From an uncultured cyanobacterium (GTDB taxonomy: Bacteria; Cyanobacteriota; Cyanobacteriia; Cyanobacteriales; CAWCAG01), in the NCBI GenBank assembly GCA_963803805.1, contig CAWDOD010000002.1, positions 288,001-352,000 of the forward strand: DNA of 64,000 bases, written 5' to 3'. The position numbers were made by a program, and so were the translations under genes. Below, in pieces: positions 3,288-18,959 of this stretch. The notes below the pieces were generated by a model. That model searched no databases. It had not been told where the DNA came from and saw only the letters and a program-made list of their open reading frames with translations. Numbering within the stretch: position 1 is the stretch's first letter; each line of letters opens with the position of its first letter.

Positions 3288-3434
3288 TTAAGAAAGCTTG
3301 CCAATCTCTACAACCCAGCGTCGGCGCTCAGAATGTTCCAGAAGTAAGATATCCTCTAAAGACCAGTGGAAATGCAAAGCAATAAAGGCTACCTCTTGGT
3401 ACAACTCATCCAAGGGGTAGCCAAGGATTCCCCC
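3288..3434 (-). CDS. DUF6760-like ORF (CIS-associated) in the -1 frame of the upstream chaperone; probably the C-terminal part of a frameshift fusion
   Basis: Manual translation GGILGYPLDELYQEVAFIALHFHWSLEDILLLEHSERRRWVVEIGKLS*; no ATG/GTG/TTG in this frame between the upstream in-frame stop (~3540) and the YP motif; not in the ORF track. Confidence 0.85.
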   Translation of the reverse strand, partial: GGILGYPLDELYQEVAFIALHFHWSLEDILLLEHSERRRWVVEIGKLS

Positions 3435-3453
3435 GACGGATCTATTACCTCCT
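3387..3453 (-). promoter_or_regulatory. Candidate -1 programmed ribosomal frameshift signal (SD + shift site + 3' stem-loop)
   Basis: mRNA: AGGAGGU (3453-3447), 12 nt, G GGG GAA (3434-3428), 5 nt, GGCUACC-C-CUUGG/10-nt loop/CCAAG-A-GGUAGCC (3422-3387). Confidence 0.75.
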
Positions 3454-3736
3454 CTATAAGGTTGAGGCGTTGATAAAAGTCTTGTAAATAAGCAAAGTCT
3501 ACCAAGAATAGCTTTTGTAACGTTTCTGGAGTAACAGCACTAAACTGACCTAAAGAAGTGATTACCCTTGATAAAGCGATAAAAACCCGCTCTTCTTCGT
3601 AATTAGCTTCGCGGTATTTTTGGACAAAAATTTCATCTTTTCCTGTAGCAGGGCGCATTTTTCCGTGGCGATGGACAACTCCCTGCTCATCTACAAAACC
3701 TTTAGGTAGAGTGAAGGGAAATTCAGTATAGGACAT
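3389..3736 (-). CDS. CIS/phage tail assembly chaperone-like protein, paralog 2
   Basis: TEFPFTLPKGFVDEQGVVHRHGKMRPATGKDE...LQDFYQRLN; paralog of 3799-4137; follows the tube genes; ATG at 3736 (GTG at 3748 alternative). Confidence 0.8.
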   Translation of the reverse strand: MSYTEFPFTLPKGFVDEQGVVHRHGKMRPATGKDEIFVQKYREANYEEERVFIALSRVITSLGQFSAVTPETLQKLFLVDFAYLQDFYQRLNLIEEVIDPSGESLATPWMSCTKR

Positions 3737-3798: not shown

Positions 3799-4137
3799 CT
3801 ATTCCACATTTTCCTTGGCTTTAACTTCTTTGGGTTGCTCATTTTCTAACTCCAAACCATTAATTTGGCGATAGAATTTTTGTAAATAGTTGAGGTCGCA
3901 AGCAAAAAAGCCTTCGATTACTGCTGGACTTATATCATCTAAAGCACCCAAGCGGGTTATAACCCTAGCAAGAATCAACACTGTAGCATAGGCTGGATTT
4001 GATTTAACGCGGGGATCGCGCATCGGTGTAATTTCATCCATCGCCCGCGAAAGACGCATCACCCCTTTGCGGTGGAGATTTCCTTCTGTGTCAATGTAAC
4101 CTTTTGGTAAAGTAAATTCAAATTCAGTTTGCAGCAT
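3799..4137 (-). CDS. CIS/phage tail assembly chaperone-like protein, paralog 1
   Basis: TEFEFTLPKGYIDTEGNLHRKGVMRL..A.DEI...RDPRV..NPAY, typical of the small gene after tube genes in eCIS loci. Confidence 0.85.
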   Translation of the reverse strand: MLQTEFEFTLPKGYIDTEGNLHRKGVMRLSRAMDEITPMRDPRVKSNPAYATVLILARVITRLGALDDISPAVIEGFFACDLNYLQKFYRQINGLELENEQPKEVKAKENVE

Positions 4138-4216: not shown

Positions 4217-4702
4217 CTATTTAACCCTTATAAAATGATCCACAGCTAATTCTACTTCTTCAACCTCAAACTCATTGTTACCGGCTTTAACATCTCCTAT
4301 TTTGTAACCTACAGGCCAAGCACCTTGGAAACGAAATCTGGCTCTTTCAATTGCACCTTGATCATAAATTGTCAAGTCCCCATCTTTCCTTTGCTTACTC
4401 CACTCTCCCTCTTCCACGGCTTGAAACCACTTCCACATAGTTGTCGAAACCGTTAAACCTCGCTTCAGAGTAATATTCTCGCTTTTGCTGTTACCGGGAA
4501 GTTTAGTACGAACAACCTTACCGTTTTTAGCTCCACCCTTGCCCCATTTTTGGGGAGTAACTTCGCAAATCTCAATTACCTCTTGGCTACGCTTAAATCC
4601 TTGACACTCCATAAAATAAGCATCAATAGGATTTTTCGACCCATCTAATTTTAATTCCAGGTAAAAGCGGGCGCTACTAAGGATTTCAAATTGTTCTGCC
4701 AT
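4217..4702 (-). CDS. CIS tube-family protein (T4 gp19-like; possibly Afp5-like tube initiator)
   Basis: F.EC.G, KLPG, NITLKRG, WKWF, RFRFQGAWP, EEVEL motifs of gp19-like tubes. Confidence 0.9.
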   Translation of the reverse strand: MAEQFEILSSARFYLELKLDGSKNPIDAYFMECQGFKRSQEVIEICEVTPQKWGKGGAKNGKVVRTKLPGNSKSENITLKRGLTVSTTMWKWFQAVEEGEWSKQRKDGDLTIYDQGAIERARFRFQGAWPVGYKIGDVKAGNNEFEVEEVELAVDHFIRVK

Positions 4703-4773: not shown

Positions 4774-5247
4774 TTACTTAACCCGATGTAAGTTTTCGTA
4801 AACAATTTCAACAGTTTCTGTACCCAATTCCGTAGCACCTGCTTCTAACTTAGATGACTTGTAACTTGCAGGCATCGCTCCGGTAAAATTCCAACGGGCG
4901 GCTTCTTCTCCAGCTTGGTTATAGAGAATAATTGAGCCTGTTTTTCTTTCTCCTTTACTGCTTGTACCACCACCAGCAATAGGTTCAGAATGGGAGTCTT
5001 CATACCATTGCATCAATCTATTATCTTCAACAGTATCCACATACTCTATAGTTATTTTGCCATTTTCCACCCCGGTAACAGTAGCCTGCATTTGGCTTTT
5101 GCCTCCCTTAGTAACACCAAAAGCTTTGGTATCCCCAGCAGTTTGTAATTTAACTTCTATACCACTAACCTTTTTGACGATTAGATCATCTAAGCCATCT
5201 AGCTGAGCATAAAACTTAGAACAAGCAAGAATTTCACCAGCAGCCAT
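4774..5247 (-). CDS. CIS tube-family protein (gp19-like)
   Basis: RKTGSIILYNQAGEEAARWNFTGAMPASY...ETVEIVYE. Confidence 0.85.
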   Translation of the reverse strand: MAAGEILACSKFYAQLDGLDDLIVKKVSGIEVKLQTAGDTKAFGVTKGGKSQMQATVTGVENGKITIEYVDTVEDNRLMQWYEDSHSEPIAGGGTSSKGERKTGSIILYNQAGEEAARWNFTGAMPASYKSSKLEAGATELGTETVEIVYENLHRVK

Positions 5248-5298: not shown

Positions 5299-5772
5299 CT
5301 ATTTCACACGATTAACTTGTTCGCAGAGTACAGTAAAAGTTTCCTTACAAAGGTCTTTACTATCTGCGGCGAAGTCATTGACTTTATAGGTTTTAATCCA
5401 GATATTGACAAGATTCCAGCGCAAAACTTCGTTATCTTCACTGTCATAACCAACAATGGAACCATTTTTACGGTTTTCACGCCACTTACCGTCGCCACCT
5501 TCGCTCTTGGGCATGGTGGCCTTCAACCAGTTATACCAATCCTGATCGCCTTCACAAAGATAAGTTTCGATGGTTACATCAGGGTTTTCTTCAAATCCTG
5601 CTGAGGTGGTTTGCCATAGAGTCTTACCATCTTTAGTAGAAGCTAGTGGTTTTTCGTGACCGGCGGTTTGTCCTGTAAAAGTTACCTCTTGGACGCTAGC
5701 AACTAGTTTATCTGTCAAGCCATCTACTTCCCAGTAAAATCGACTAGTTGGGGTTGGTCTTAATTCTGTCAT
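5299..5772 (-). CDS. CIS tube-family protein (gp19-like)
   Basis: RKNGSIVGYDSEDNEVLRWNLVNIW; directly after the sheath gene; strong SD. Confidence 0.85.
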   Translation of the reverse strand: MTELRPTPTSRFYWEVDGLTDKLVASVQEVTFTGQTAGHEKPLASTKDGKTLWQTTSAGFEENPDVTIETYLCEGDQDWYNWLKATMPKSEGGDGKWRENRKNGSIVGYDSEDNEVLRWNLVNIWIKTYKVNDFAADSKDLCKETFTVLCEQVNRVK

Positions 5773-5888: not shown

Positions 5889-7604
5889 TTACTGGTTGGG
5901 GGCCCATTGGCTAACGCGGAAAATGACAAATTCGGCCGGACGTACAGGACAAACACCAACTTCTACATAAAGGCGACCCATCATCATGGTTTCTGGGGTA
6001 TTGAGAGTGCCGTCACACTTGACATAAAAAGATTCGGCAGGGGAAGCACCAAATAGCGCTCCTTCGCGCCACAAACGCTCTAGGAATGTACCAACGGTAC
6101 GCTTTACCCTTTCCCAAAGATCCATATCATTAGGTTCAAAAACAACCCATTGAGTACCAATCTCAATGGACTTTTCAATGTAGCTAATCAAGCGACGTAC
6201 ACTGATATAGCGCCATTGAATATTATCAGGTTCAACCAGAGTACGAGCGCCCCAAACTTTGTAGCCTCGATTGTAGTTAGCAAAGTTACGGATACAGTTA
6301 ATCCCCATGGGGTTGAGAAGTTCTTGTTCCCGCATATTGGTTTCGTAGGCTAAACCAATGACTCCCCTGGGGGTGTCATTAGCTGGGGCTTTGAAAATAC
6401 CACGGTTTTGGTCAGTGCGACACCAAATTCCCATCATATGACCACAAGGGGGGATACTAATGGGTCTTCCTGCATTGCGAGGGTTGGGAACTTTGATCCA
6501 GGGGTAGTATAAGGCGCCAAACATAGAACGGCGGTTAAAGGCTTTTAACCACTCAGCTATGTGTTGGGGTCTTTGTTCTTCAGGCTTGACAGCTTGGTTC
6601 TCATTCTTACCCATCTTAACAGGGGGGGGATCTAACACCACCATGCGGTAAGGAGGGCCAGGGAAGGAGTTCTCGCAGAGACTAACCATCATCTCCATGA
6701 CCCCATGTACCTGATCTAAGTCCAGCAAATTGTCTTGGTAGGCCCGCATCAGGTCAGGACAGGCTATCATAGCTACTTCGTCTACTTCAAACAGCCCTTG
6801 CATCCCTTGGCGTTCGTCCCGGCTACCGGTTACATCCCTGGTTAAGCGATCAGGAGGCGCAATGTAAGGAGGGGGGGCAACTTCATAGGTTCCATTGGCA
6901 GGCCGTCGAGAGATGGCAGATTGTCCAGTGATGGAGATGTCAGCAACGCTTACATACTCAGAAGCTTCCATAACTGCAACAGCATAATCTGCTACGGCTG
7001 TTTCTACTTCTGGGTTCATGGTGAGGTTATCGTAGCGCTCTAATTCTTCGTTACCACTTCTGACTACTACATTGAAGAATTCCCCAGTATTGATTGGGGA
7101 TTCTGCGTCTTCCGGGGCATCATCGGGTAGGGGTTTAGGTGTGCTTTCTTCTACATAAACCCGGATGCGTCCATCAGCAGAAGGTAAGGCCAGTTGACTA
7201 TTTTCTCCTTCTGGCATTTTCAAATTGAATGCTAAAGAAGGTTTGCCCCCAGGAGTAAGCATTTTCGTTGCCGTTTCTTCTGGTGCTGGGGCTTCGGAAC
7301 CAGGTAATTTTGTACCGATACTTGTTACCCAACAACGTCCTCCCCCATTCAAAAACCAACCTTGGACAGCGAAAGGAAGATAGGCATCAAAATCTGTAAA
7401 ACCATCAGAACCCGGTTTAGCAAAATACTCCCTAAACTGATCGAAGTTGGTAACCATCATTGGCTTAAACAATTCTGCGTCGCCCCGGACATCTTCGGTA
7501 AAACCGATAAATCCTGCTACGCTCATACTTAACCCTTCAATCGGGCGACTGCCCCGGTCTACTTCTTCAACGTAGACCCCAGGAGCGAAATAATCCAATG
7601 CCAT
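5889..7604 (-). CDS. Contractile tail sheath protein (Afp2/3/4, Pvc2-like)
   Basis: YFAPGVYVEEV, ALYYPWI, KAPAN, LNPMGINCIR, VWGARTL, WRYISVRR, WVVFEPN, PVRPAEFVIFR. Confidence 0.97.
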   Translation of the reverse strand: MALDYFAPGVYVEEVDRGSRPIEGLSMSVAGFIGFTEDVRGDAELFKPMMVTNFDQFREYFAKPGSDGFTDFDAYLPFAVQGWFLNGGGRCWVTSIGTKLPGSEAPAPEETATKMLTPGGKPSLAFNLKMPEGENSQLALPSADGRIRVYVEESTPKPLPDDAPEDAESPINTGEFFNVVVRSGNEELERYDNLTMNPEVETAVADYAVAVMEASEYVSVADISITGQSAISRRPANGTYEVAPPPYIAPPDRLTRDVTGSRDERQGMQGLFEVDEVAMIACPDLMRAYQDNLLDLDQVHGVMEMMVSLCENSFPGPPYRMVVLDPPPVKMGKNENQAVKPEEQRPQHIAEWLKAFNRRSMFGALYYPWIKVPNPRNAGRPISIPPCGHMMGIWCRTDQNRGIFKAPANDTPRGVIGLAYETNMREQELLNPMGINCIRNFANYNRGYKVWGARTLVEPDNIQWRYISVRRLISYIEKSIEIGTQWVVFEPNDMDLWERVKRTVGTFLERLWREGALFGASPAESFYVKCDGTLNTPETMMMGRLYVEVGVCPVRPAEFVIFRVSQWAPNQ

Positions 7605-7940: not shown

Positions 7941-8198
7941 TTTCAAAAGTAAAAAGTAACTTAAAATATACGCTGATTAATCTTGATCCTTACACCAACA
8001 AGAGCAAGTACAGCAAAGAATTAGGAAATCAAGGTAGCATCTGGGTACAAAACTTAGTCAAATGGTGGGGCGCAATTTTCTTTTCCTCTATCGCGCTTAG
8101 GAAAAAATCAGGAAAAGTCAAGAGAAAGTTTGAAGTTAAAAAGACAAAAAACATTTTTCTTGATAACTTCTTCGCAAAAGAGTTTTAGGGGCAATTTT

Positions 8199-8894
8199 AT
8201 GATGACTACTGCAACCCAGTCAATCTCAATTTTGTTAGTGGATGACCAACCTCTATTCCGCCAGGGGCTGCGTACTTTGCTAAATTTTTATGGCGAAAGT
8301 GGTTCTTTGCAATTTAATATTGTTGGTGAAGGGGCTACGGTAGAACAAGCTGTTAAACTTACGGTGCAACAAAATCCTTCCTTGATATTATTAGATTTAG
8401 AATTAGCTCATGGTAGCGGTATTCATGCCCTGCTACGTTTAAGAGAGTTATCCTATAAAGGAAGAGTATTAGTTCTTTCTGCCCACAGGGAAGACGAATG
8501 GGTCTTTAAAGCTATGCAAGCAGGAGCAAAAGGCTATGTATTTAAGGATTACCTAGCTAGTCAACTTTGTGAAGCAATTTCTACAGTAATGAGGGATGAG
8601 GTCTATTTAGCCCCAGAGGTAGCTACCAGCTTTTTTAGAATGTTTCACTTCTATGCAGGCAATTCTTTTAAAACGGCTTCCAACCTCAACTTAACTGAAA
8701 GAGAACAAGAAGTCCTACATTGGCTAGTGCAGGGTTCTTCAAATGACCAAATTGCCCGTAAACTGCACGTTACAGTAGCTACAGTCAAAGCTCATTTAAC
8801 TTCTATTTTTGATAAATTAAGTGTAAGAAGTCGAACCCAAGCAATTATTAAAGCGTTAAAACTAGGGCTAGTAGGGGCAACTATCGTACCCTAG
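8199..8894 (+). CDS. NarL/FixJ-family response regulator (REC + LuxR HTH)
   Basis: LLVDDQPLFRQGL, LLDL, GAKGYVFK, LTEREQEVL...TVKAHLTSIFDKL.V.SRTQA. Confidence 0.93.
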   Translation: MMTTATQSISILLVDDQPLFRQGLRTLLNFYGESGSLQFNIVGEGATVEQAVKLTVQQNPSLILLDLELAHGSGIHALLRLRELSYKGRVLVLSAHREDEWVFKAMQAGAKGYVFKDYLASQLCEAISTVMRDEVYLAPEVATSFFRMFHFYAGNSFKTASNLNLTEREQEVLHWLVQGSSNDQIARKLHVTVATVKAHLTSIFDKLSVRSRTQAIIKALKLGLVGATIVP

Positions 8895-9000: not shown

Positions 9001-10299
9001 ATGAGTAATTATCTAGCAATTGCCACCGTAACTGCTGTTTTACAGAGAACCTTAATCAAGGCAATAGAAGCAGATATAGAGGGTGTAAGAGTAACTACCA
9101 ACCGTCCTGATAACCCTGGCGGTGGCATACCAGAAACCAGAGTTAATCTTTATCTTTATCAAGCCGAACTCAATGAAGTGTGGCGCAATAGTGCCAACAT
9201 GAGAGCAAACCGTAATCGTCAAGGAGAGTCTGCTAAGCAAAATCGTACCGCTTTCGATCTGCACTATATGATTAGCTTTTACGGTAACGATGCGGAATTA
9301 AAGCCCCAGCGTCTTATGGGAAGTGCAATACAAGCTCTTACAGATAAACCCATTATTACCACAGACATGATCAAAGGTGCTACTGATGATTCTAGCTTTG
9401 CTTATTTAGCGGAAAATACTCTCATTGAACAGGTAGAACAAATCAAATTTATACCCTTAGATTTATCGGTAGAGGATTTATCTAAAATTTGGTCAATATT
9501 TTTTCAAACTCCCTATACTTTATCTATTGCCTATCGTGTTACGGCAGTAGTTATTGAAGGACATAAACCTGCTCAAAAATCTTTGCCTGTTACAGACCGC
9601 AGTACTGGGGGCATAGCACCTTTTCCTAACCAGCCTATTATTGAAAGTATCGAATCAGAAGTCGGTAGATTTGAACCAATTTTAGCAAGTAGTATCTTAA
9701 CGATTAAAGGACAAAATTTGCAAGGTCAAATCACTCAGGTTTTAGTGGGGAATTTTGAAGCGACACCAACAGAGGTAAATGACACTGAAGTAAAATTTGA
9801 TCTTGGTTTCTTACCTAGCCCCGCTTTAAAAGTAGGAGTACAGAGTTTGCAAATAATTCATCGTTTTAACCCTGGTCAAGTTCCCCAAATTATTACTCCT
9901 CAAACTAAGTCTATGACTGTTGTAGAGTCTAATGTCATGCCTTTTGTAGTACGTCCTAGTATCAAAGAAATTAAGGTAGAAAATTTACAAGGTCGTCGTG
10001 ATGAATCCCGTTCTGGAGATTTAGTTATTCAAACCGATGTCTCCATTGCTAAAGAACAGCGCATACTTATATCTCTAAATGAGTGGTCAACCGATGATCC
10101 AGCAACTTATATGTTTAAAAGTCCCCACTCTCGTTCTGGAGATACTCAAACTATCACTGTGCCAATTAATCAAGTTCAAGCAGGACAATATTTAGTTCGC
10201 CTCCATGTTGATGGGGCAGAAAGTCCTTTAGAAAGAGATACAGACCCCGATAGTCCTACCTTTAATTGGTATGTTAGACCTAAAGTTTTAATTGCTTAA
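9001..10299 (+). CDS. DUF4255/Pvc16(Afp16)-like CIS cap/terminator protein with C-terminal Ig/IPT-like extension
   Basis: MSNYLAIATVT, RVNLYLYQ, DLHYMISFYG, LSKIWSIF.QTPY.LS.AY; beta-rich C-terminal half. Confidence 0.85.
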   Translation: MSNYLAIATVTAVLQRTLIKAIEADIEGVRVTTNRPDNPGGGIPETRVNLYLYQAELNEVWRNSANMRANRNRQGESAKQNRTAFDLHYMISFYGNDAELKPQRLMGSAIQALTDKPIITTDMIKGATDDSSFAYLAENTLIEQVEQIKFIPLDLSVEDLSKIWSIFFQTPYTLSIAYRVTAVVIEGHKPAQKSLPVTDRSTGGIAPFPNQPIIESIESEVGRFEPILASSILTIKGQNLQGQITQVLVGNFEATPTEVNDTEVKFDLGFLPSPALKVGVQSLQIIHRFNPGQVPQIITPQTKSMTVVESNVMPFVVRPSIKEIKVENLQGRRDESRSGDLVIQTDVSIAKEQRILISLNEWSTDDPATYMFKSPHSRSGDTQTITVPINQVQAGQYLVRLHVDGAESPLERDTDPDSPTFNWYVRPKVLIA

Positions 10300-11564: not shown

Positions 11565-13025
11565 CTAATTGCTAATAGTTTTCTTCCTGTCCTCTTTTAC
11601 CTCCTCTACTGGTAAGAAAACGCTAAAAGTAGTCTTTCCTGGTTGACTTTCTACTGAGATTTTACCTTGATGTTTATCAACAATCTTACGAACGATACTT
11701 AATCCTAAGCCACTACCTTCTCCTGGGCTTTTAGTGGTAAAGAACGGTTGAAAAATTTTCTCTTTTATTTCTGCTGGAATACCACAACCTGAATCAGTAA
11801 TTTTTACCACTATATAATTGTTTTGGGGCTGGACTTCTATACCTAACTTACCCTGATTTTTCATCCCTTGGATAGCATTGTAAATTAAATTGAGCCAAAC
11901 TTGTTTTATTTCATCGGGACAACAAAGTATTTTTGGAATAGTTTGGTAGCTTTTAGTTACCTCAATACCTTGCTTAAAACGAGTTTGTTGTAAATTCAAA
12001 ACTGCTTCTATACCTTCAGTTAAGTCAACTAGAAGTTTTGCGCTAGAATGTTCGTAATTAGCATAGGTTTTTAAAACAAACACTATTTTATTAGTTAACT
12101 CTGTTGCCTCTAAGATGGTTTTTGTATTGCGATATAAAGAGGTAATGTCATAAACAGTATTCAAAATTTGTTGGCAATTTTCTTCTTTTAAAAGGGGCAA
12201 AGTGAATTTCCACTCTTCATAAACACCTACACTAATTAAGATATTAGCTTTTAAGCTAGCATCCCTAATATTATGTGCTTTGAGTTGCTGAGTTAAAGAC
12301 TTCTTTAAACTGCGTTTTTCCCTAGAAGATAAGGAAAAAATATGGTTTTGTTGAGTCGCGATTTTTAATAAACTTAGAACTAGGACATGATATTGGGGAG
12401 GAAGTTCTTGGAAGAAGTCTGGTAATTGACTCAAGGTTTCTCTAAAAAAATAGAGGCTGTTTCCTGCTGAAGAACGAATTGCCGCTAGGGGGCTATTCAT
12501 TTCATGGGCAACTCCTGCTACTAATTGAGTTAAATGGCTTTCGCTTTCTTTTAACTGTTTAATTAGTTTAGCTTGTTGGCAATTTAATTGTTGTAATTGG
12601 GCATTCTGCTTTTCAAGTTGTTGAGATTGTAAATAGCTCTTGACTGCTTCTTTAATAGTCAAATTCAGGTCTTCAATTTGCCAAGGCTTAGCAATATAAC
12701 GATACAGTTGAGCTGAATTTATAGCATTAGTCACCCCTTCTATTTTTGCTTGGCCAGTGAGCATTATTTTGAGGGTTTGAGGTGAAACTTGATGAATTTT
12801 TTTTAAAACTTCATCCCCTTTTAAACCTGGCATAATATAGTCGGAGATTACTAGAGCAATTTCACAATTTTCTTCTAATAGTTCAGCCACTAAATCTAAT
12901 GCTTCTAACCCACCAATAGCAGTTTCAATTTCAAAATCATCTTCTAGTTCTTTTGATAGTTGTCTCCTTAAACTATCGAGAACAGTTTCTTCATCATCAA
13001 CGCACATAATAATAGGTTTATTCAT
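11565..13025 (-). CDS. Hybrid response regulator/histidine kinase (REC-HisKA-HATPase)
   Basis: CVDDE, ISDYIMP, AGVAHEMNSP, NLIYNA, DSGCGI, FFTTK, GSGLGL. Confidence 0.92.
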   Translation of the reverse strand: MNKPIIMCVDDEETVLDSLRRQLSKELEDDFEIETAIGGLEALDLVAELLEENCEIALVISDYIMPGLKGDEVLKKIHQVSPQTLKIMLTGQAKIEGVTNAINSAQLYRYIAKPWQIEDLNLTIKEAVKSYLQSQQLEKQNAQLQQLNCQQAKLIKQLKESESHLTQLVAGVAHEMNSPLAAIRSSAGNSLYFFRETLSQLPDFFQELPPQYHVLVLSLLKIATQQNHIFSLSSREKRSLKKSLTQQLKAHNIRDASLKANILISVGVYEEWKFTLPLLKEENCQQILNTVYDITSLYRNTKTILEATELTNKIVFVLKTYANYEHSSAKLLVDLTEGIEAVLNLQQTRFKQGIEVTKSYQTIPKILCCPDEIKQVWLNLIYNAIQGMKNQGKLGIEVQPQNNYIVVKITDSGCGIPAEIKEKIFQPFFTTKSPGEGSGLGLSIVRKIVDKHQGKISVESQPGKTTFSVFLPVEEVKEDRKKTISN

Positions 13026-13417
13026 AATTGTTCTAATCCTGATTTAATACATTTAATTAGTTCTGCTTCACTCCAGGGCTTGTTTAAATAAGCATGAATA
13101 TGACCTTCTGTTTTAGCACGTTCAATAGCTTCTGGGTCAGCTTGTCCTGTTAATAGTATTTTGACTACTTGGGGGAACTTATCATGTACTGCTACCAAAA
13201 ATTCATCTCCTTTCATTCCTGGCATTAACCAATCAGAAACTATGACAATAATATTACTTCCTTCTGCTTGTAATTCTTCAATGATTTCTAAAGCTTCTTC
13301 AGCACTTTCTGAGGTTTCGTAAACATAGCGCTCACCGAATGCTCCTTGCAATTGTCGAAGGAGGCTGTTTAGGATAATTACTTCGTCGTCGATACATATA
13401 ATAGCTAGTTCTGACAT
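13022..13417 (-). CDS. Single-domain response regulator
   Basis: CIDDE, VSDWLMPGMKG, LTGQ, KPW. Confidence 0.92.
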   Translation of the reverse strand: MSELAIICIDDEVIILNSLLRQLQGAFGERYVYETSESAEEALEIIEELQAEGSNIIVIVSDWLMPGMKGDEFLVAVHDKFPQVVKILLTGQADPEAIERAKTEGHIHAYLNKPWSEAELIKCIKSGLEQL

Positions 13418-13454
13418 GATTGGATAAGGGGTAATGAAAAGTTATTTTATGGGG

Positions 13455-16400
13455 TTAAACTGGTAGGGAAACTGTGAAAGTGGTTTTTCCTGGTATAGAG
13501 GTAAAATCAATTTCTCCTTGATGCTTTTTAACAATCTTTTTAACAATATCTAAACCTAAACCACTTCCTTCTCCTGGAGGTTTTGTGGTGAAGAAAGGTT
13601 GGAATATTTTGCTTTGTATTTCTGTCGGTATGCCTTCACCACTATCTGTAATACTTACTTTAATTTGCTCCTCTTCTTGCCAAGCAGTAATGGTTAAAGT
13701 GCCTTTGTTACTCATTGCTTGAAAAGCATTATGAATTAAATTTGTCCAAACTTGATTGAGTTCATCAAAATAGCATTGAATTGGTGATATATGTTGATAA
13801 TCACAAACTAATTTTACCCCTTGTTTAAAATGATTTTGATACAAGGTTAAAACGGCATTAATGCCGTCAAGAATATTAATTGTTCTCTTCTCTCCACTTT
13901 GGTCATAATGGGCATAGGTTTTTAAAGCAAAAACTACTTTTGCTGCTCGATCAGAAGCTAAGTTAATATCTCTAGTACTTTGTTGTAAACGAGCAAACTG
14001 CCGCACAATCTTCAAAAAACCTTCACTGTCTGATTCTTTTAACACAGGGAAAAATGGTTCTATATTTGCATAAATTCCTAAATCAATAAATAAATTAGCT
14101 AAGTTACTCGCTTTGGCAATTTTCTCAGCTTCTAAAACACTGGTTACAGCCTTTCTTAACTTCCTCCTTTCCCTACCGGAAACCATCAGGGTATTTTCCT
14201 GAGAAAGTTGCAATAGAGTCAAAAAAGTTGCTTGTTGTTGCTCAGAAAGACTTTGGAAAAATTCTGGAAGTTGGGTTAATTGTTGCGCTAGAAAATCGCC
14301 AATATACTGCACCGAAGAACGAATAGCCCCCAAGGGAGTATTAATTTCGTGGGCAACACCAGCCACAAGCTGCCCCAAGGCTGCCATTTTCTCAGCTTGG
14401 ATTAATTCATCTTGGGTGGCTTCTAGTTCCCTTAAAGTTGTAGAAAGTTTTGCGGTGCGTTCAGCAACTTTTTGTTCTAGGTTGTTATAAAGTCGGGCAT
14501 TATCAATAGCGATGGCAGCTTCTCCTGAGAGGAGTTGTAATATCTGCAATCTCTCGGAGGTGAAGGCTCCTGTGGTAAGATTATTTTCTAAGTAAAGGAT
14601 GCCACTAAGTTTGCCTTGGTTAATTAAAGGGGTACAAAGGATCGATTTTGGTTGCTGGTTTTTGATGTAGGGATCATTGCTGAATTGAGCTTGTGCTATG
14701 GCATTGTCTAAAACCACATCTTTATGAGTGTGCCACACATAGTTGACAATGCTTCGTGCCAGGTTGGGATTATGTTTTAGGGAAATAGATTCAAGGATGC
14801 TTGCTTGTTGTTGATCAATTCTCTTGGCAGCTTCGATGAATAATCTGCCCTTAGTTTCCAAGATTAAATAACCGGTTTGCGCCCCAGCATTGGTAATCAG
14901 AATAACCATTAATTTTTCAAGCAACTTCGGTAAGACAATTTCCCCAGAAATAGCTTGAGAAGCCTGGAGGACAGCCCCTAAATCCAGTTGGCTTGTGAGA
15001 GTTTTGCTGGTAGTTGTGATGTTAGTATTGCTGATGTGACTGAGGGCAGGAGGTTTAGTTTGCAGTTGAGGATATTGTGTTTGCAAAGCTTGAACTTTTG
15101 CTGTTGCTCCCCATTTTAGATAGCAGTGGTAAGCTTCTTTGAGGTAATCTAGGGCTAGTCGAGGTTTGCCCCAATCAAAGTAGAATTTAGCTGCCAATTC
15201 ATTAGCCAGGGCTTCTTCATTAAGATACTGATTTTCTTTAGCTTGGGCAATAGCAAGGTCATAATAATCTATGGCTGCTGACTTATCCCCTACAACGTGA
15301 TACCTTTGGGCTTCTACCAAGGAAAATTTGTGCAAGAAGTTGCTAGGACAGCGATTCGCCCATTGCTCCATCTTCTCTTGGTTCACCTTAACTTGCCACA
15401 ATAACTCTTCTGATTGTGGTTGTGCTAATTGAATCAAAGCATCGTAGAAGTAAAATAAGGGAATACTGAGGGTTGCTGTCACTCCATCTAAATACTGCTT
15501 TGCTTTAGTGATGTTCTCTGCTGCCTGTTGATACTCCTCAAAAAGATAATGTAGGAAAGCTTTGTTAAAATACAAATAATAAAGAGCAGTTTTATCATTA
15601 GCTTCCTGGTGCAAGGGTAACATCTTAACTTCATCATAAGCTTCTCCCTGTAAAAGACAAGGCTGTTGGGATTGTCCCCGTAAATTCAAAACTACCTGGT
15701 AATAAACTTGGTGATAATTTAAGGCTGTTTCTTGTTTAAGTTGGGCGATCGCCTCACTATACTTAGCCATACCTGTTGCCAATGTCCCCAATTCCTCTCC
15801 TAAGAAAAATTTGTGCAGCCAGTACACCGCCGCACAATAAGCACCATATTCTACATCCCCCGTTTCCCAAGCACTCTTGTATGCCTCTTGTAAAGGTTGT
15901 AAGGTATTGCTAAGGGGTTCTCGCCAATGACAAAGAAAGCTATAAACTATTTGCATAGTTCTAGTTTTTACTTTTCTGGCATTGTCGCGTTCCAACAATC
16001 CTAAAGCAAGTTGCCCAAATTGATACCCCAATTCAAAATCTTCTTTAATGCCGCATAAAATTAGTCCGTAGGTAGCATAGGCGAAAGCAGACACCGCAGC
16101 ATTACCATACTTAATTGACAAGCTAACCTGGCGACAAACAATTAAGGGAAACATAGCCGGAACTGCTTGAAATGCCGCAGAAAAAACATTACCGAGAATT
16201 TTTATCGCTACTAGCTTTGCGGGATCTTTCATCTCCGGCAATTGCAGTAATTCCAAAGGTTGCTTACCTTGCAAGTCCACTTCTGCAAAAGCTTGTTGCA
16301 AGTCAGCTTCACCTGGTTGTTGAGGAAACTCAACTCCCAACTGCTTCAGAAAAACCAGGGCGGTTTGCCATGCTTCTAGCTGTTTGTTTTGCGCCATGGC

Positions 16401-18959
16401 AGCTTGTAGTTGTACTTGCTGCACTTTGACTTTATCTGCTAATTTCCTAGCTTGTTGCTGAACAACTTGGCATAAAGTGACTTGCTGTTGCCAGTCTCCC
16501 TTTAAATAAGCGGCTTCTGCCCCTAAAGAATGCAAAGACAAGGTTAAATCATAGTGGGTTTGCCAACTTTGGGATGGTAAAAGTGCCAACCCATTGTGGA
16601 AATACTCAAAAGCAGCTTCGTAGGCTGTTGCAGATCCTGCTTTCTGCCCAGCTAGTAAATTCAGCTTCGCAATATCATGCCGTTCCTTTGCTTCTATTGC
16701 CAAGGTAGCACCAAGGTTGAGGTGATCGACAATCTCAAACAATCTTTCTGTATTTGTATTTTGCCACAACTGCCGACCAATTTTCAAATGCACAGCTTGT
16801 TTTTCAGCTTCATTAATTAAAGCATAAGCTGCTTGTTGAATGCGATCATGGGCAAACTTATAAGCTTGTTGCCCTACGGGATAAACCAAGTCTGCTTGAA
16901 GCGCAACTGCTAATTCTTCTCTAACTTGCAATGCTTGCTGATCACAGATCATTACTAAAGTTTCTAAGTCAAAATGCGCTCCCACACAAGCTGCCAAACA
17001 CAAGACTTGTTGACTAGATTGCCGCAACTTCTGTATCTTGGCAATGGTTAACTCTACTACATTATCAGTGATGTTTTTTCCTTCAATCTCAGCCAGATTC
17101 CATTGCCAACCTGCCCTAACAGTTTCGTTGTCATCCAAAGAAGATGCAGAATAGGAAAACGTGATTAATTCTTCTTCATAAAGGGTTTTGAGAAACTCCC
17201 TAACAAAAAAAGGATTGCCTGCGGTTTTACGCAGTATCAACTCTGCCAAGGGTTGCACAAAAGACATCTTGCCTTGCAGGGTAGCCGCAACTAATTGCTG
17301 AATTTGCCCTAAATTCAAAGGAGTTAAGTTAATTTGCTCAACAATACCCCCTTGCTTACTAATATTTTCTAGGGTTAGCATCAAAGGATGAGTAGGACTA
17401 ACTTCATTGTCACGATAAGCACCAATTAAAAGTAGCCCACTTACCTTGTCAGCCATCATAATTTGCATCAGCTTCAAACTTGCTGCATCAGCCCATTGCA
17501 AATCATCAAGGAAGATTATTAAAGGCTGTTGCCAAGAACAAAAAGCTTGAATGAATTTACTAAAAACAAAATTGAAGCGATTTTGAGACTTTGTAGCCCC
17601 TAACTTAGTGACAGCAGGCTGGGAACCAATAATTAGTTCAACTTCTGGTATCACCTCAATAATAACCCTTCCCAAACTTCCCAAAGCCTGTAAAAGCTTG
17701 GTACGCCATTGCTGAAGCTGTTCTTTACTTTGACTCAAAAGCTGTTCTACCAATACCCGCAAAGCAGCAACAACGGCTGAATAGGGGACGTTGCGTTGAA
17801 ACTGCTCAAACTTACCAGAGATAAAGTGATGTTGCTGCAAGGCAAGGGAATTGCGAAACTGCTTAATTAAAGAAGATTTACCAATACCGGAGTAGCCTGC
17901 AACCAGAAGAAGTTCTGAATTATAAGGGGATGAGGGTGTAGAGTGATCAGGGGGTAGGAGATTTTTGTCACTACGATTTTCTGGGCTTAGGGTAACTCTT
18001 TCAAAGGCTGCTAATAACTGGGCAACCTCCGTTTCTCTACCATAAATCTTGTCCGGAATCATGAAGCGATTGGTAATATCCCTTTCACCTAATCTAAAAG
18101 CCTCAACTGTCCCCCTTTCCTGCCATTGCTGGCAACATTTTTGCAGATCATACCTCAACCCCAAAGCACTCTGATAGCGCTCCTCCGGATTTTTGGCCAT
18201 CAACTTCATCACAATATCTGCAACCACCTGGGGAACCTGTTCTTTACTGTTCCCTAATGCCCTTGGCATTTTAGCCAGATGACAATGTACCAACTCCATG
18301 GCATCTTGGGTTTCAAAAGGCAACCTTCCTGTCAATAGTTCGTAAAAAGTTACTCCAAGGGAATAAAAATCAGTGCGATAATCTAAAGCTGAATTTGTTC
18401 TACCCGTTTGTTCTGGAGATATATAAGCTAAAGTTCCCTCAAGAACATTGGGATCGCGGGATAGGGGATTTTCTCGGCTAAAAGTTGTAGAAATACCAAA
18501 ATCAATAATCTTAACCTGCCCCGTTTCTGGGTTAAGAAGGATATTACTAGGATTTATATCTTTATGAATGATATTACTGTGGTGAATTCCCCCCAAAATC
18601 TGGGTTATTTCTATAGCTAGGGGAAAAAACTCTCCTAAAGGTAAAGGATATTCCTTGGGTTGTTTCAGAGATTGACCACCAAAATCTTCCAAAACCAGCA
18701 CCAGAGTTCCCTGATGGTATTCTTGGCTATAAGCAGCGATCGCCCCAGGAATTTTTAGCTTACGAATAATTTCGTACTCCTTTTGGTAGCGATTCAATTC
18801 CTGGGGGTTGGGATATTCTTGCTTGAGGACTTTCAGGATGACACAAAGATCGTCTTTTTCGCGAATGCCACGAAAAATAAGGGAATTGCCACTGTCATAG
18901 AGTTGTTCAGTTAAGCAATAACCAGCAAGTTTTAACATGATTTTTTGTTGGTTTAGCAA
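13455..18959 (-). CDS. Trifunctional Ser/Thr kinase - AAA ATPase - GAF - histidine kinase sensor
   Basis: HKDINPSN/DFG kinase motifs, Walker A GYSGIGKS, Walker B IIFLDDLQW, GAF (LYLENN), AGVAHEINTP and HATPase boxes. Confidence 0.93.
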   Translation of the reverse strand: MLNQQKIMLKLAGYCLTEQLYDSGNSLIFRGIREKDDLCVILKVLKQEYPNPQELNRYQKEYEIIRKLKIPGAIAAYSQEYHQGTLVLVLEDFGGQSLKQPKEYPLPLGEFFPLAIEITQILGGIHHSNIIHKDINPSNILLNPETGQVKIIDFGISTTFSRENPLSRDPNVLEGTLAYISPEQTGRTNSALDYRTDFYSLGVTFYELLTGRLPFETQDAMELVHCHLAKMPRALGNSKEQVPQVVADIVMKLMAKNPEERYQSALGLRYDLQKCCQQWQERGTVEAFRLGERDITNRFMIPDKIYGRETEVAQLLAAFERVTLSPENRSDKNLLPPDHSTPSSPYNSELLLVAGYSGIGKSSLIKQFRNSLALQQHHFISGKFEQFQRNVPYSAVVAALRVLVEQLLSQSKEQLQQWRTKLLQALGSLGRVIIEVIPEVELIIGSQPAVTKLGATKSQNRFNFVFSKFIQAFCSWQQPLIIFLDDLQWADAASLKLMQIMMADKVSGLLLIGAYRDNEVSPTHPLMLTLENISKQGGIVEQINLTPLNLGQIQQLVAATLQGKMSFVQPLAELILRKTAGNPFFVREFLKTLYEEELITFSYSASSLDDNETVRAGWQWNLAEIEGKNITDNVVELTIAKIQKLRQSSQQVLCLAACVGAHFDLETLVMICDQQALQVREELAVALQADLVYPVGQQAYKFAHDRIQQAAYALINEAEKQAVHLKIGRQLWQNTNTERLFEIVDHLNLGATLAIEAKERHDIAKLNLLAGQKAGSATAYEAAFEYFHNGLALLPSQSWQTHYDLTLSLHSLGAEAAYLKGDWQQQVTLCQVVQQQARKLADKVKVQQVQLQAAMAQNKQLEAWQTALVFLKQLGVEFPQQPGEADLQQAFAEVDLQGKQPLELLQLPEMKDPAKLVAIKILGNVFSAAFQAVPAMFPLIVCRQVSLSIKYGNAAVSAFAYATYGLILCGIKEDFELGYQFGQLALGLLERDNARKVKTRTMQIVYSFLCHWREPLSNTLQPLQEAYKSAWETGDVEYGAYCAAVYWLHKFFLGEELGTLATGMAKYSEAIAQLKQETALNYHQVYYQVVLNLRGQSQQPCLLQGEAYDEVKMLPLHQEANDKTALYYLYFNKAFLHYLFEEYQQAAENITKAKQYLDGVTATLSIPLFYFYDALIQLAQPQSEELLWQVKVNQEKMEQWANRCPSNFLHKFSLVEAQRYHVVGDKSAAIDYYDLAIAQAKENQYLNEEALANELAAKFYFDWGKPRLALDYLKEAYHCYLKWGATAKVQALQTQYPQLQTKPPALSHISNTNITTTSKTLTSQLDLGAVLQASQAISGEIVLPKLLEKLMVILITNAGAQTGYLILETKGRLFIEAAKRIDQQQASILESISLKHNPNLARSIVNYVWHTHKDVVLDNAIAQAQFSNDPYIKNQQPKSILCTPLINQGKLSGILYLENNLTTGAFTSERLQILQLLSGEAAIAIDNARLYNNLEQKVAERTAKLSTTLRELEATQDELIQAEKMAALGQLVAGVAHEINTPLGAIRSSVQYIGDFLAQQLTQLPEFFQSLSEQQQATFLTLLQLSQENTLMVSGRERRKLRKAVTSVLEAEKIAKASNLANLFIDLGIYANIEPFFPVLKESDSEGFLKIVRQFARLQQSTRDINLASDRAAKVVFALKTYAHYDQSGEKRTINILDGINAVLTLYQNHFKQGVKLVCDYQHISPIQCYFDELNQVWTNLIHNAFQAMSNKGTLTITAWQEEEQIKVSITDSGEGIPTEIQSKIFQPFFTTKPPGEGSGLGLDIVKKIVKKHQGEIDFTSIPGKTTFTVSLPV

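Follow-up and report, generated by a model that had tools for sequence, protein, structure and literature searches.

The window examined here, a 64,000-nucleotide stretch of a contig from an uncultured cyanobacterium, carries part of a chromosomal contractile injection system (CIS), and within it a small gene for a tail assembly chaperone whose 3' end is overlapped, in the -1 frame, by a segment encoding a DUF6760 domain. Judging from this sequence and its relatives, we consider it very likely that ribosomes shift by -1 on the heptamer G GGG GAA, with a downstream hairpin helping, and that two proteins would result: a 115-aa chaperone and a 149-aa chaperone-DUF6760 fusion. A -1 frameshift joining chaperone to DUF6760 may also be ancestral and near-universal in a large clade of chromosomal CIS (Cyanobacteria, Myxococcota, Chloroflexota, Bacillota, Actinomycetota, and others)—a proposal towards which we lean rather than one we hold firmly. 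The mechanism and the heptamer are already known from phage tails; what is new is the chromosomal injection-system setting across many phyla and two archaea, the DUF6760 extension, and the absence of annotation. The elements concerned are the following:

3389..3736, minus strand: tail assembly chaperone, 0-frame product ('G'-like, 115 aa), with ATG at 3736 and stop TAG at 3391-3389
3288..3434, minus strand: -1 frame segment encoding DUF6760, the 'T'-like extension, with stop TAA at 3290-3288; the predicted fusion has 149 aa
3428..3434, minus strand: slip site G GGG GAA, read as TCG GGG GAA in the 0 frame and as GGG GGA A in the -1 frame
3387..3422, minus strand: candidate stimulatory hairpin, 5 nt after the slip site, containing the 0-frame stop TAG 3391-3389
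3447..3453, minus strand: internal Shine-Dalgarno-like (SD-like) element AGGAGGT, 12 nt upstream of the slip site

An earlier note on this stretch, made from the letters alone, had described these sequence features, and all of them are present. In the 0 frame the chaperone open reading frame (ORF) ends in ...IDPSGESLATPWMSCTKR, while the -1 frame of the minus strand reads ...GGILGYPLDELYQEVAFIALHFHWSLEDILLLEHSERRRWVVEIGKLS. The -1 peptide matches DUF6760 (PF20546) in Pfam with an E-value of 8.4e-13 and 48.6 bits (gathering cut-off 27), over profile positions 8-46 of 89, and a whole-genome search with PF20546 (47 bits) finds a single copy in the genome. Upstream, the -1 frame stays open over about 40 codons; its earliest ATG, GTG, or TTG is the TTG at 3413, which lies 3' of the Tyr-Pro motif. 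The note had also worried about the length of the G5 run. An independent contig assembly of a public sequencing run, probably of the source sample, spans 3395-3642 with no difference or gap, and it reproduces the G5. That run was the sole DNA run listed as containing the stretch, and no RNA run was listed. The proposed length of the fusion stands as well—149 aa in either case—and the residues at the junction may be ...PSGE-ILGYP, if both tRNAs slip, instead of the ...PSGG-ILGYP that had been written down and that would follow if the P-site tRNA slips alone.

The frame relation seen in the window is shared by its relatives. A scan with the chaperone alignment, over one genome per species, gave 586 confirmed hits; the best 80 of these were used and, with the window, make 81 sources. 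The 80 loci span Cyanobacteria, Myxococcota, Chloroflexota, Bacillota, Actinomycetota, Acidobacteriota, Chlorobiota, Pseudomonadota, and Dormibacterota, along with two archaea (Methanothrix and Methanoperedens). DUF6760 lies directly 3' of the chaperone in 78 of the 81 sources, and its frame is -1 in every locus that can be scored (77 of 77). The seventy-eighth locus, L031, is unscorable; its apparent in-frame relation is explained by a masked run of N at about 2780-2890 that interrupts the chaperone gene, and its local sequence is the same. No ATG, GTG, or TTG occurs between the upstream -1 stop and the Tyr codon in 48 of the 78 loci, and a further 14 have a start codon only at least 8 codons upstream of Tyr. 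Twelve of these 14 starts lie about 17-21 codons before Tyr and read as an xTG from the CPxC motif of the chaperone (judged by eye, not scored); the other two are a Kofleriaceae GTG in CCC GGG GTG, 8 codons before Tyr.

A second sample, consisting of 301 Actinomycetota genomes searched with PF20546, gave matches in 14 genomes and 17 loci; two of the loci, L078 and L086, sit in unpublished genomes, and no conclusion rests on either. The chaperone is found upstream in the -1 arrangement in 15 of the 17 loci, and 14 of those 15 have a slip site: CTG GGG GAA in eleven, and GGGGGGA, GGGGGGG, and CCCTTTC in one each. The sequence of the actinobacterial loci reads CTG GGG GAA TCG TGA. Closer to the window, the relatives of its chaperone end in ...SGE(S/F/L)LATPWMS(C/Y)TKR, where the changes from S to F and from C to Y would be synonymous in the -1 frame (ATC to ATT, TTG to TTA), which argues that the -1 frame is the selected one there. 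Nature also offers one in-frame version of the proposed product: P0006, a chaperone-DUF6760 fusion of 153 aa, is 56% and 76% identical to the two parts and has no G-run motif at its junction. When DUF6760 proteins of similar or greater length were sought, with a tool whose word index limits its reach, P0006 and two calls of 65-70 aa were all that came up.

The slip site itself is conserved. When 77 distinct loci are anchored on the Tyr codon, each of positions -15 to -11 is G in 71-75 of them, followed by A at -10 in 59, a purine at -9 in 72, and T at -8 in 74; nearby ordinary third positions are almost uninformative. GGGGGAA or GGGGGAG (GGGGGAR) stands at offset -15, in the same register, in 55 of the 78 loci. 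Each of the remaining 23 carries, inside the overlap and in the correct 0-frame register, a canonical X XXY YYZ heptamer: G GGG GGG in five loci; G GGG GGA in four; A AAT TTT in four, from Lachnospiraceae; C CCG GGG in four (three Kofleriaceae and L036, from Proteobacteria), with a stop codon next; C CCT TTG and C CCT TTC in two each; and A AAC CCT and G GGA AAA in one each. An independent heptamer in either of the wrong registers is present in only 3 of these 23. The correct register is a requirement of tandem tRNA slippage, and it is a property that a Shine-Dalgarno sequence, a start codon, or a polymerase run would not need.

The position of the shift is narrowly bounded. The -1 frame opens merely 3 nt before the G-run in four loci, and the 0-frame stop follows directly after the heptamer in 23 loci and one codon later in 43; because of this late opening and these early stops, the shift is confined to -18..-8, that is to the heptamer, in all G-run loci.

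A hairpin accompanies the G-run type of site. Folding of 3434-3380 in the window returns the hairpin at 3422-3387, with -21.5 kcal/mol and a z-score of -2.33 (7 of 200 shuffles fold as well). It is simple and bulged, and the DUF6760 codons for G/S-Y-P-(x) and E-E-V-A supply its arms. Across 75 distinct sequences, 85.9% of cells pair, against 80.7% after column shuffling (none of 500 shuffles reaches the observed value) and 25-58% in slid controls; covariation, too, is above that in all 500 shuffles and all slid controls, and one pair is C-G in 66 loci, U-A in 7, and U-G in 3. Of the 63 loci whose G-run stands at -15, 62 encode the Val with GTA, where local codon usage would give 12.4, and 58 of 62 use CCC for the Pro, where 14.5 would be expected; GTA occurs in none of the 15 loci whose slip site lies elsewhere, so that heptamer and hairpin travel together, at a fixed spacing of 5 nt. 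The hairpin arms are under RNA-level selection. The SD-like element has a more modest standing: the equivalent zone contains a match of -7 kcal/mol or below in 23 of 63 loci, and three control zones contain one in 2, 11, and 1 of the 63; this signal is confounded because the equivalent zone also encodes a conserved Val-Glu, and we count the element as support for the window only.

The earlier note had singled out four things for comparison across such pairs. The -1 overlap is conserved in all scorable loci, and so is the slip site, as a GGGGGAA-type or canonical heptamer in register, in 78 of 78; the hairpin shows frozen synonymous sites and some covariation; the SD-like element recurs at a similar spacing in about a third of the loci.

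Several observations weigh against the reading set out so far. GGGGGAA is not a strict X XXY YYZ heptamer. Some of the pairing would be there anyway, given the conserved residues that the hairpin arms encode; RNAalifold returned no consensus structure when run on all 78 mixed sequences, and the named hairpin was tested after that result; and the other slip-site classes have no consistent downstream hairpin, the only one of note being in L054 (z -3.1). The SD-like element, too, is strong in just 23 of 63 relatives. With regard to the sample, distant relatives are under-represented because the loci are the best 80 of 586 hits, three of the 81 chaperone loci (all Chloroflexota) are without any DUF6760, and the sole natural fusion, P0006, sits on a metagenome contig of 1306 bp.

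The remaining points of this kind concern how translation of DUF6760 begins, and they lend what strength it has to the best of the rival explanations: that DUF6760 is translated as a protein of its own, from a start codon close to the 3' end of the chaperone gene used either independently or by coupled termination-reinitiation, with the G-run as ribosome-binding site. Sixteen of the 78 loci have an ATG, GTG, or TTG within 3 codons of the Tyr codon, and GTGA or ATGA stop/start overlaps are common in Actinomycetota and Myxococcota, which makes coupled re-initiation possible in those loci; GGGGGA can pair with the anti-Shine-Dalgarno sequence; and in P0122 and P0123 gene callers did place the start of such an ORF at an upstream ATG. 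Plausible ATG starts exist in four loci—L026 has a TGATG overlap, L095 an ATGA overlap with an ATG start, and L088 and L092 carry DUF6760 with an ATG and no chaperone nearby—which indicates that DUF6760 can act unfused and that a minority of lineages make it as a free protein. The proposal that DUF6760 does not exist as a gene by itself is right for the window and most lineages, and fails for these four loci.

For the family at large, separate initiation nevertheless seems improbable to us. The open frame contains no start whatever in 48 of the 78 loci, and in the window, where no canonical start precedes Tyr-Pro, the TTG at 3413 would remove the conserved G-Y-P. Where candidate starts do exist, the G-run is 0-4 nt from them, too near for a Shine-Dalgarno sequence. 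Separate initiation also leaves unexplained why A AAT TTT, C CCT TTC/G, C CCG GGG, and G GGA AAA stand in exact 0-frame register, and why Gly-Gly-(Ile/Val/Met) codons are conserved in the -1 frame upstream of such starts. Such initiation is real in a few lineages and, with canonical codons, impossible in the window. The four loci named above are natural 'unfused T' controls.

Transcriptional slippage, in which RNA polymerase adds one G within the G5-G8 run and so yields the same fusion, is a slightly poorer candidate again. One extra base gives the same reading frame as a -1 slip of the ribosome, and a homopolymer run is at the site in 64 of the 78 loci; the run, however, is always in register G GGG GAR, which is relevant to tRNAs and not to a polymerase, and the 14 loci with heteropolymeric tandem-slip heptamers allow no one-base polymerase realignment of this kind. 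A G5 run is short for bacterial transcriptional slippage, and a hairpin 5 nt downstream has the geometry of ribosomal frameshifting. Last, an originally single chaperone-DUF6760 ORF broken by a one-base indel, through misassembly or gene decay, can practically be dismissed: homopolymer runs are error-prone and one relative, P0006, is a single ORF, but its junction has no G-run, the same split and frame recur in 77 scorable loci (isolates and metagenome-assembled genomes, from many phyla) and in 15 of the 17 further loci, and the second assembly of the public run shows the same G5.

Programmed -1 frameshifting by the ribosome, the reading we prefer, would proceed as follows. Most ribosomes would translate the chaperone to the TAG at 3391-3389; a fraction would slip back by one base at 3434-3428 and read on through DUF6760 in the -1 frame to produce the 149-aa fusion. 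The Gly-tRNA would re-pair from GGG to GGG and the Glu-tRNA from GAA to GGA, with a central G:U pair, and the slip would be assisted by the hairpin 5 nt downstream and, in the window, probably by AGGAGGT 12 nt upstream as well. By analogy with lambda gpGT, DUF6760 might then act like the lambda T domain and tie the chaperone to the growing tube or to tube subunits. That both products are made, in whatever ratio, is what we infer.

Structure prediction bears on the first half of the proposed pair. By profile alone the 115-aa ORF is hard to name, with weak matches to Phage_TAC_7 (PF10109; E 0.005, below the cut-off) and to phrog_508, 'tail assembly chaperone' (E 3.7e-4). An AlphaFold model built from a 20-sequence alignment has a predicted local distance difference test score (pLDDT) of 80.5, with residues 99-115 disordered, and the fold it predicts is clearly that of a tail assembly chaperone: its matches include a T4-like baseplate hub assembly protein (E 1.6e-5), FS-gp41 of Mu (E 1e-3), Bacillus subtilis YqbN (Z 8.0), and the HK97 tail assembly chaperone (Z 6.5), with unrelated entries below Z 4.

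The DUF6760 half is modelled as a three-helix domain (pLDDT 82.5), for which a fold search returned nothing significant; the best E-values were 0.36 in BFVD and 3.9 in the PDB (Foldseek). The weak matches, which serve as a lead only, include a cyanophage Gp51 (E 2.1, non-significant) and three phage tail or tape-measure chaperones. Sequence comparison with the PDB was no more productive: the peptide had no match at E <= 1, a 49-sequence profile had no relevant match at E <= 10, and a helical domain of 48 residues is hard to place. NCBIfam gave no match for the four proteins searched, and tblastn of P0006 against 50,697 phage records found no phage counterpart. A predicted complex of the adjacent tube protein and DUF6760 scored 0.00, with controls not run, and says nothing either way. 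Two BFVD entries, A0A8S5QRT9 and A0A8S5QR30, come from one uncultured myovirus, Myoviridae sp. ctgXL3; one (a 270-aa 'baseplate protein') is a top structural match of the chaperone, with E 1.3e-4, and the other, of 74 aa and with 30% identity, heads the matches of DUF6760 without being significant (E 0.36). The two may be a phage counterpart of the chaperone/DUF6760 pair.

In lambda (gpG/gpGT) and P2 (gpE/gpE+E'), tail assembly chaperones are made by programmed -1 frameshifting. The sequence evidence strongly supports the window system as the CIS form of these pairs and of gp41/FS-gp41 in Mu, with DUF6760 as the 'T' part. As in lambda, P2, and Mu, a small chaperone gene lies just 3' of the tube gene or genes, a start-less -1 ORF overlaps its 3' end, and the slip site comes a few codons before the 0-frame stop; the Mu protein matched by the chaperone model, FS-gp41, is itself a frameshift product. 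The differences are equally plain: the window pair belongs to a chromosomal CIS and not to a phage, no tape measure gene follows it, the extension is DUF6760, a family without a described function, and an unextended chaperone paralog lies directly upstream.

The -1 frameshift signal of Escherichia coli dnaX consists of a Shine-Dalgarno sequence, A AAA AAG, and a hairpin. The window has a comparable three-element layout at similar spacings, with an SD-like element in the first place; the heptamer is different, the slip in dnaX shortens the product where that in the window lengthens it, and the SD-like element is not universal among the relatives of the window. T4 represents another solution—to judge by the title of a study by Vladimirov, Gautam & Davidson (2022) on its tail chaperones gp26 and gp51, T4-like phages reportedly manage without frameshifting. 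The best structural match of our chaperone is annotated 'baseplate hub assembly protein, T4-like', and the separate short and long genes of such phages parallel the lineages in which DUF6760 has its own ATG; the CIS family, unlike T4-like phages by that title, mostly frameshifts.

The closest parallels to the slip site are in siphophages. The earlier note had pointed to GGGGGAA in phage chaperones, and passages of two papers bear this out: those of the PRFect paper describe GGGGGAA as the only 'five-two' motif across about 1000 SEA-PHAGES frameshift sites and give a G:U re-pairing argument (PMC10885494), and those on the tail assembly genes of corynephage phi16 report an internal Shine-Dalgarno sequence, GGGGGAA, and a pseudoknot (PMC5506516). 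Going by these passages, the window shares with actinobacteriophage and corynephage chaperones the identical heptamer and the same re-pairing logic, and with phi16 the three-part layout of internal Shine-Dalgarno or SD-like sequence, GGGGGAA, and downstream structure. In contrast to the window pair, those are siphophage chaperones, which have no detectable sequence relation to the CIS pair, and the stimulator in the window is a simple bulged hairpin formed from the G/S-Y-P and E-E-V-A codons of DUF6760.

Within CIS, another small helical protein encoded near the tube genes is Cis6/Afp6/Pvc6/Alg6, described in parts of three papers as the spike plug of the particles (PMC8894136, PMC12546770, PMC12210884). 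The identity of DUF6760 with this plug (Cis6/Afp6/Pvc6) was considered and set aside, as it has no sequence support and the PDB includes those particles. The literature searched, which did not extend to subscription papers or supplements, yielded no description of a chaperone frameshift in CIS, in agreement with the earlier note, which knew of none for extracellular CIS loci; the papers searched also contained no mention of 'DUF6760'.

These results matter in several respects. Should the frameshift be ancestral and near-universal in its clade, few -1 recoding events in cells, as opposed to phages, would be as widespread, and it would be a rare archaeal case; CIS would build their tubes with a chaperone mechanism of the G/GT type in which DUF6760 supplies the missing 'T' domain, also where no tape measure gene is adjacent. 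At least this large CIS clade would then have retained the phage G/GT chaperone mechanism, and DUF6760 gains a concrete proposed role. CIS are being engineered to deliver proteins, and their correct heterologous expression would require a second, hidden product of an assembly gene. For research on recoding, the loci are a natural collection in which different slip sites replace one another at a homologous position and the hairpin occurs only where the site is of the GGGGGAR type—a collection useful for learning what makes a heptamer slippery.

Annotation is affected as well: in many genomes the DUF6760 gene is missed, or is called from a start that is probably a by-product of the overlapping frame. 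The database entries P0122 and P0123 begin with MPPVQ... or MPSVQ... at an ATG about 20 codons before Tyr, at a position that we take to be the CPxC codons read in the -1 frame. The N-terminal portion of entries of this type is probably not real protein, and gene calls from the upstream ATG may explain how a stand-alone Pfam family arose.

Both archaeal loci come from metagenome-assembled genomes. L012:1044-1123 (Methanothrix) and L064:2840-2919 (Methanoperedens) have GGGGGAA, the spacer, and a hairpin formed by GGCUACCCC/GGAGGUAGC. By their sequence they are candidate archaeal -1 programmed frameshifts, if real.

The genes around the frameshifted pair, which place it within a CIS, are listed below:

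3799..4137, minus strand: second tail assembly chaperone paralog without extension, 112 aa (phrog_508, E 7.1e-4)
4217-4702, 4774-5247, and 5299-5772, minus strand: three tail tube (gp19-like) genes (Pfam Phage_T4_gp19, E 7.5e-30, 7.3e-21, and 4.7e-14)
5889..7604, minus strand: tail sheath gene, first of the trunk operon (Pfam Phage_sheath_1 and Phage_sheath_1C)
9001..10299, plus strand: divergent Pvc16_N (cap/terminator-like) protein (Pfam Pvc16_N, E 8.8e-43)

The minus-strand operon thus runs from the sheath through three gp19-like tubes, the 112-aa ORF, and the 115-aa ORF to DUF6760, which comes last; a convergent rimM is the next gene. The PDB relatives of the tube genes are CIS tube proteins, including Anabaena All3324 and Pvc1. 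The sheath at 5889..7604 is the sole sheath match in the genome, and the genome's only gp25-like baseplate gene lies on another contig (G000:C4:343912-344172, L099), from which we take the window to hold the trunk module of a split CIS. The 112-aa ORF, directly upstream of the frameshifted gene, is 40% identical to the 115-aa chaperone (E 2e-23), and ORFs of 99-117 aa occupy the equivalent site in many cyanobacterial loci. The injection system may therefore hold a dedicated 'G-only' gene beside a 'G/GT' gene.

The classical phage order of tube, chaperone pair, and tape measure is not matched here: the tubes do lie upstream, but the operon ends after DUF6760 and no tape measure gene comes next; this weakens the comparison with the classical arrangement and leaves the mechanism unaffected. 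In relatives, the gene after DUF6760 encodes an FHA protein, a second sheath, or a tube. Nostoc and Calothrix loci (L034:3000-5003 and L023:3025-4743) have a protein of 570-670 aa with an N-terminal FHA domain after DUF6760, whose gene overlaps the DUF6760 stop or begins about 20 nt after it, at the position that the tape measure has in phages.

Genes for signalling proteins lie on either side of the trunk operon. Between the sheath and Pvc16_N genes, at 8130-8894 on the plus strand, is one for a LuxR-type response regulator, and the region 11565-18959 on the minus strand encodes a hybrid histidine kinase, a receiver protein, and an 1834-aa Ser/Thr kinase-AAA-GAF-histidine kinase protein; these may be regulators of the injection system.

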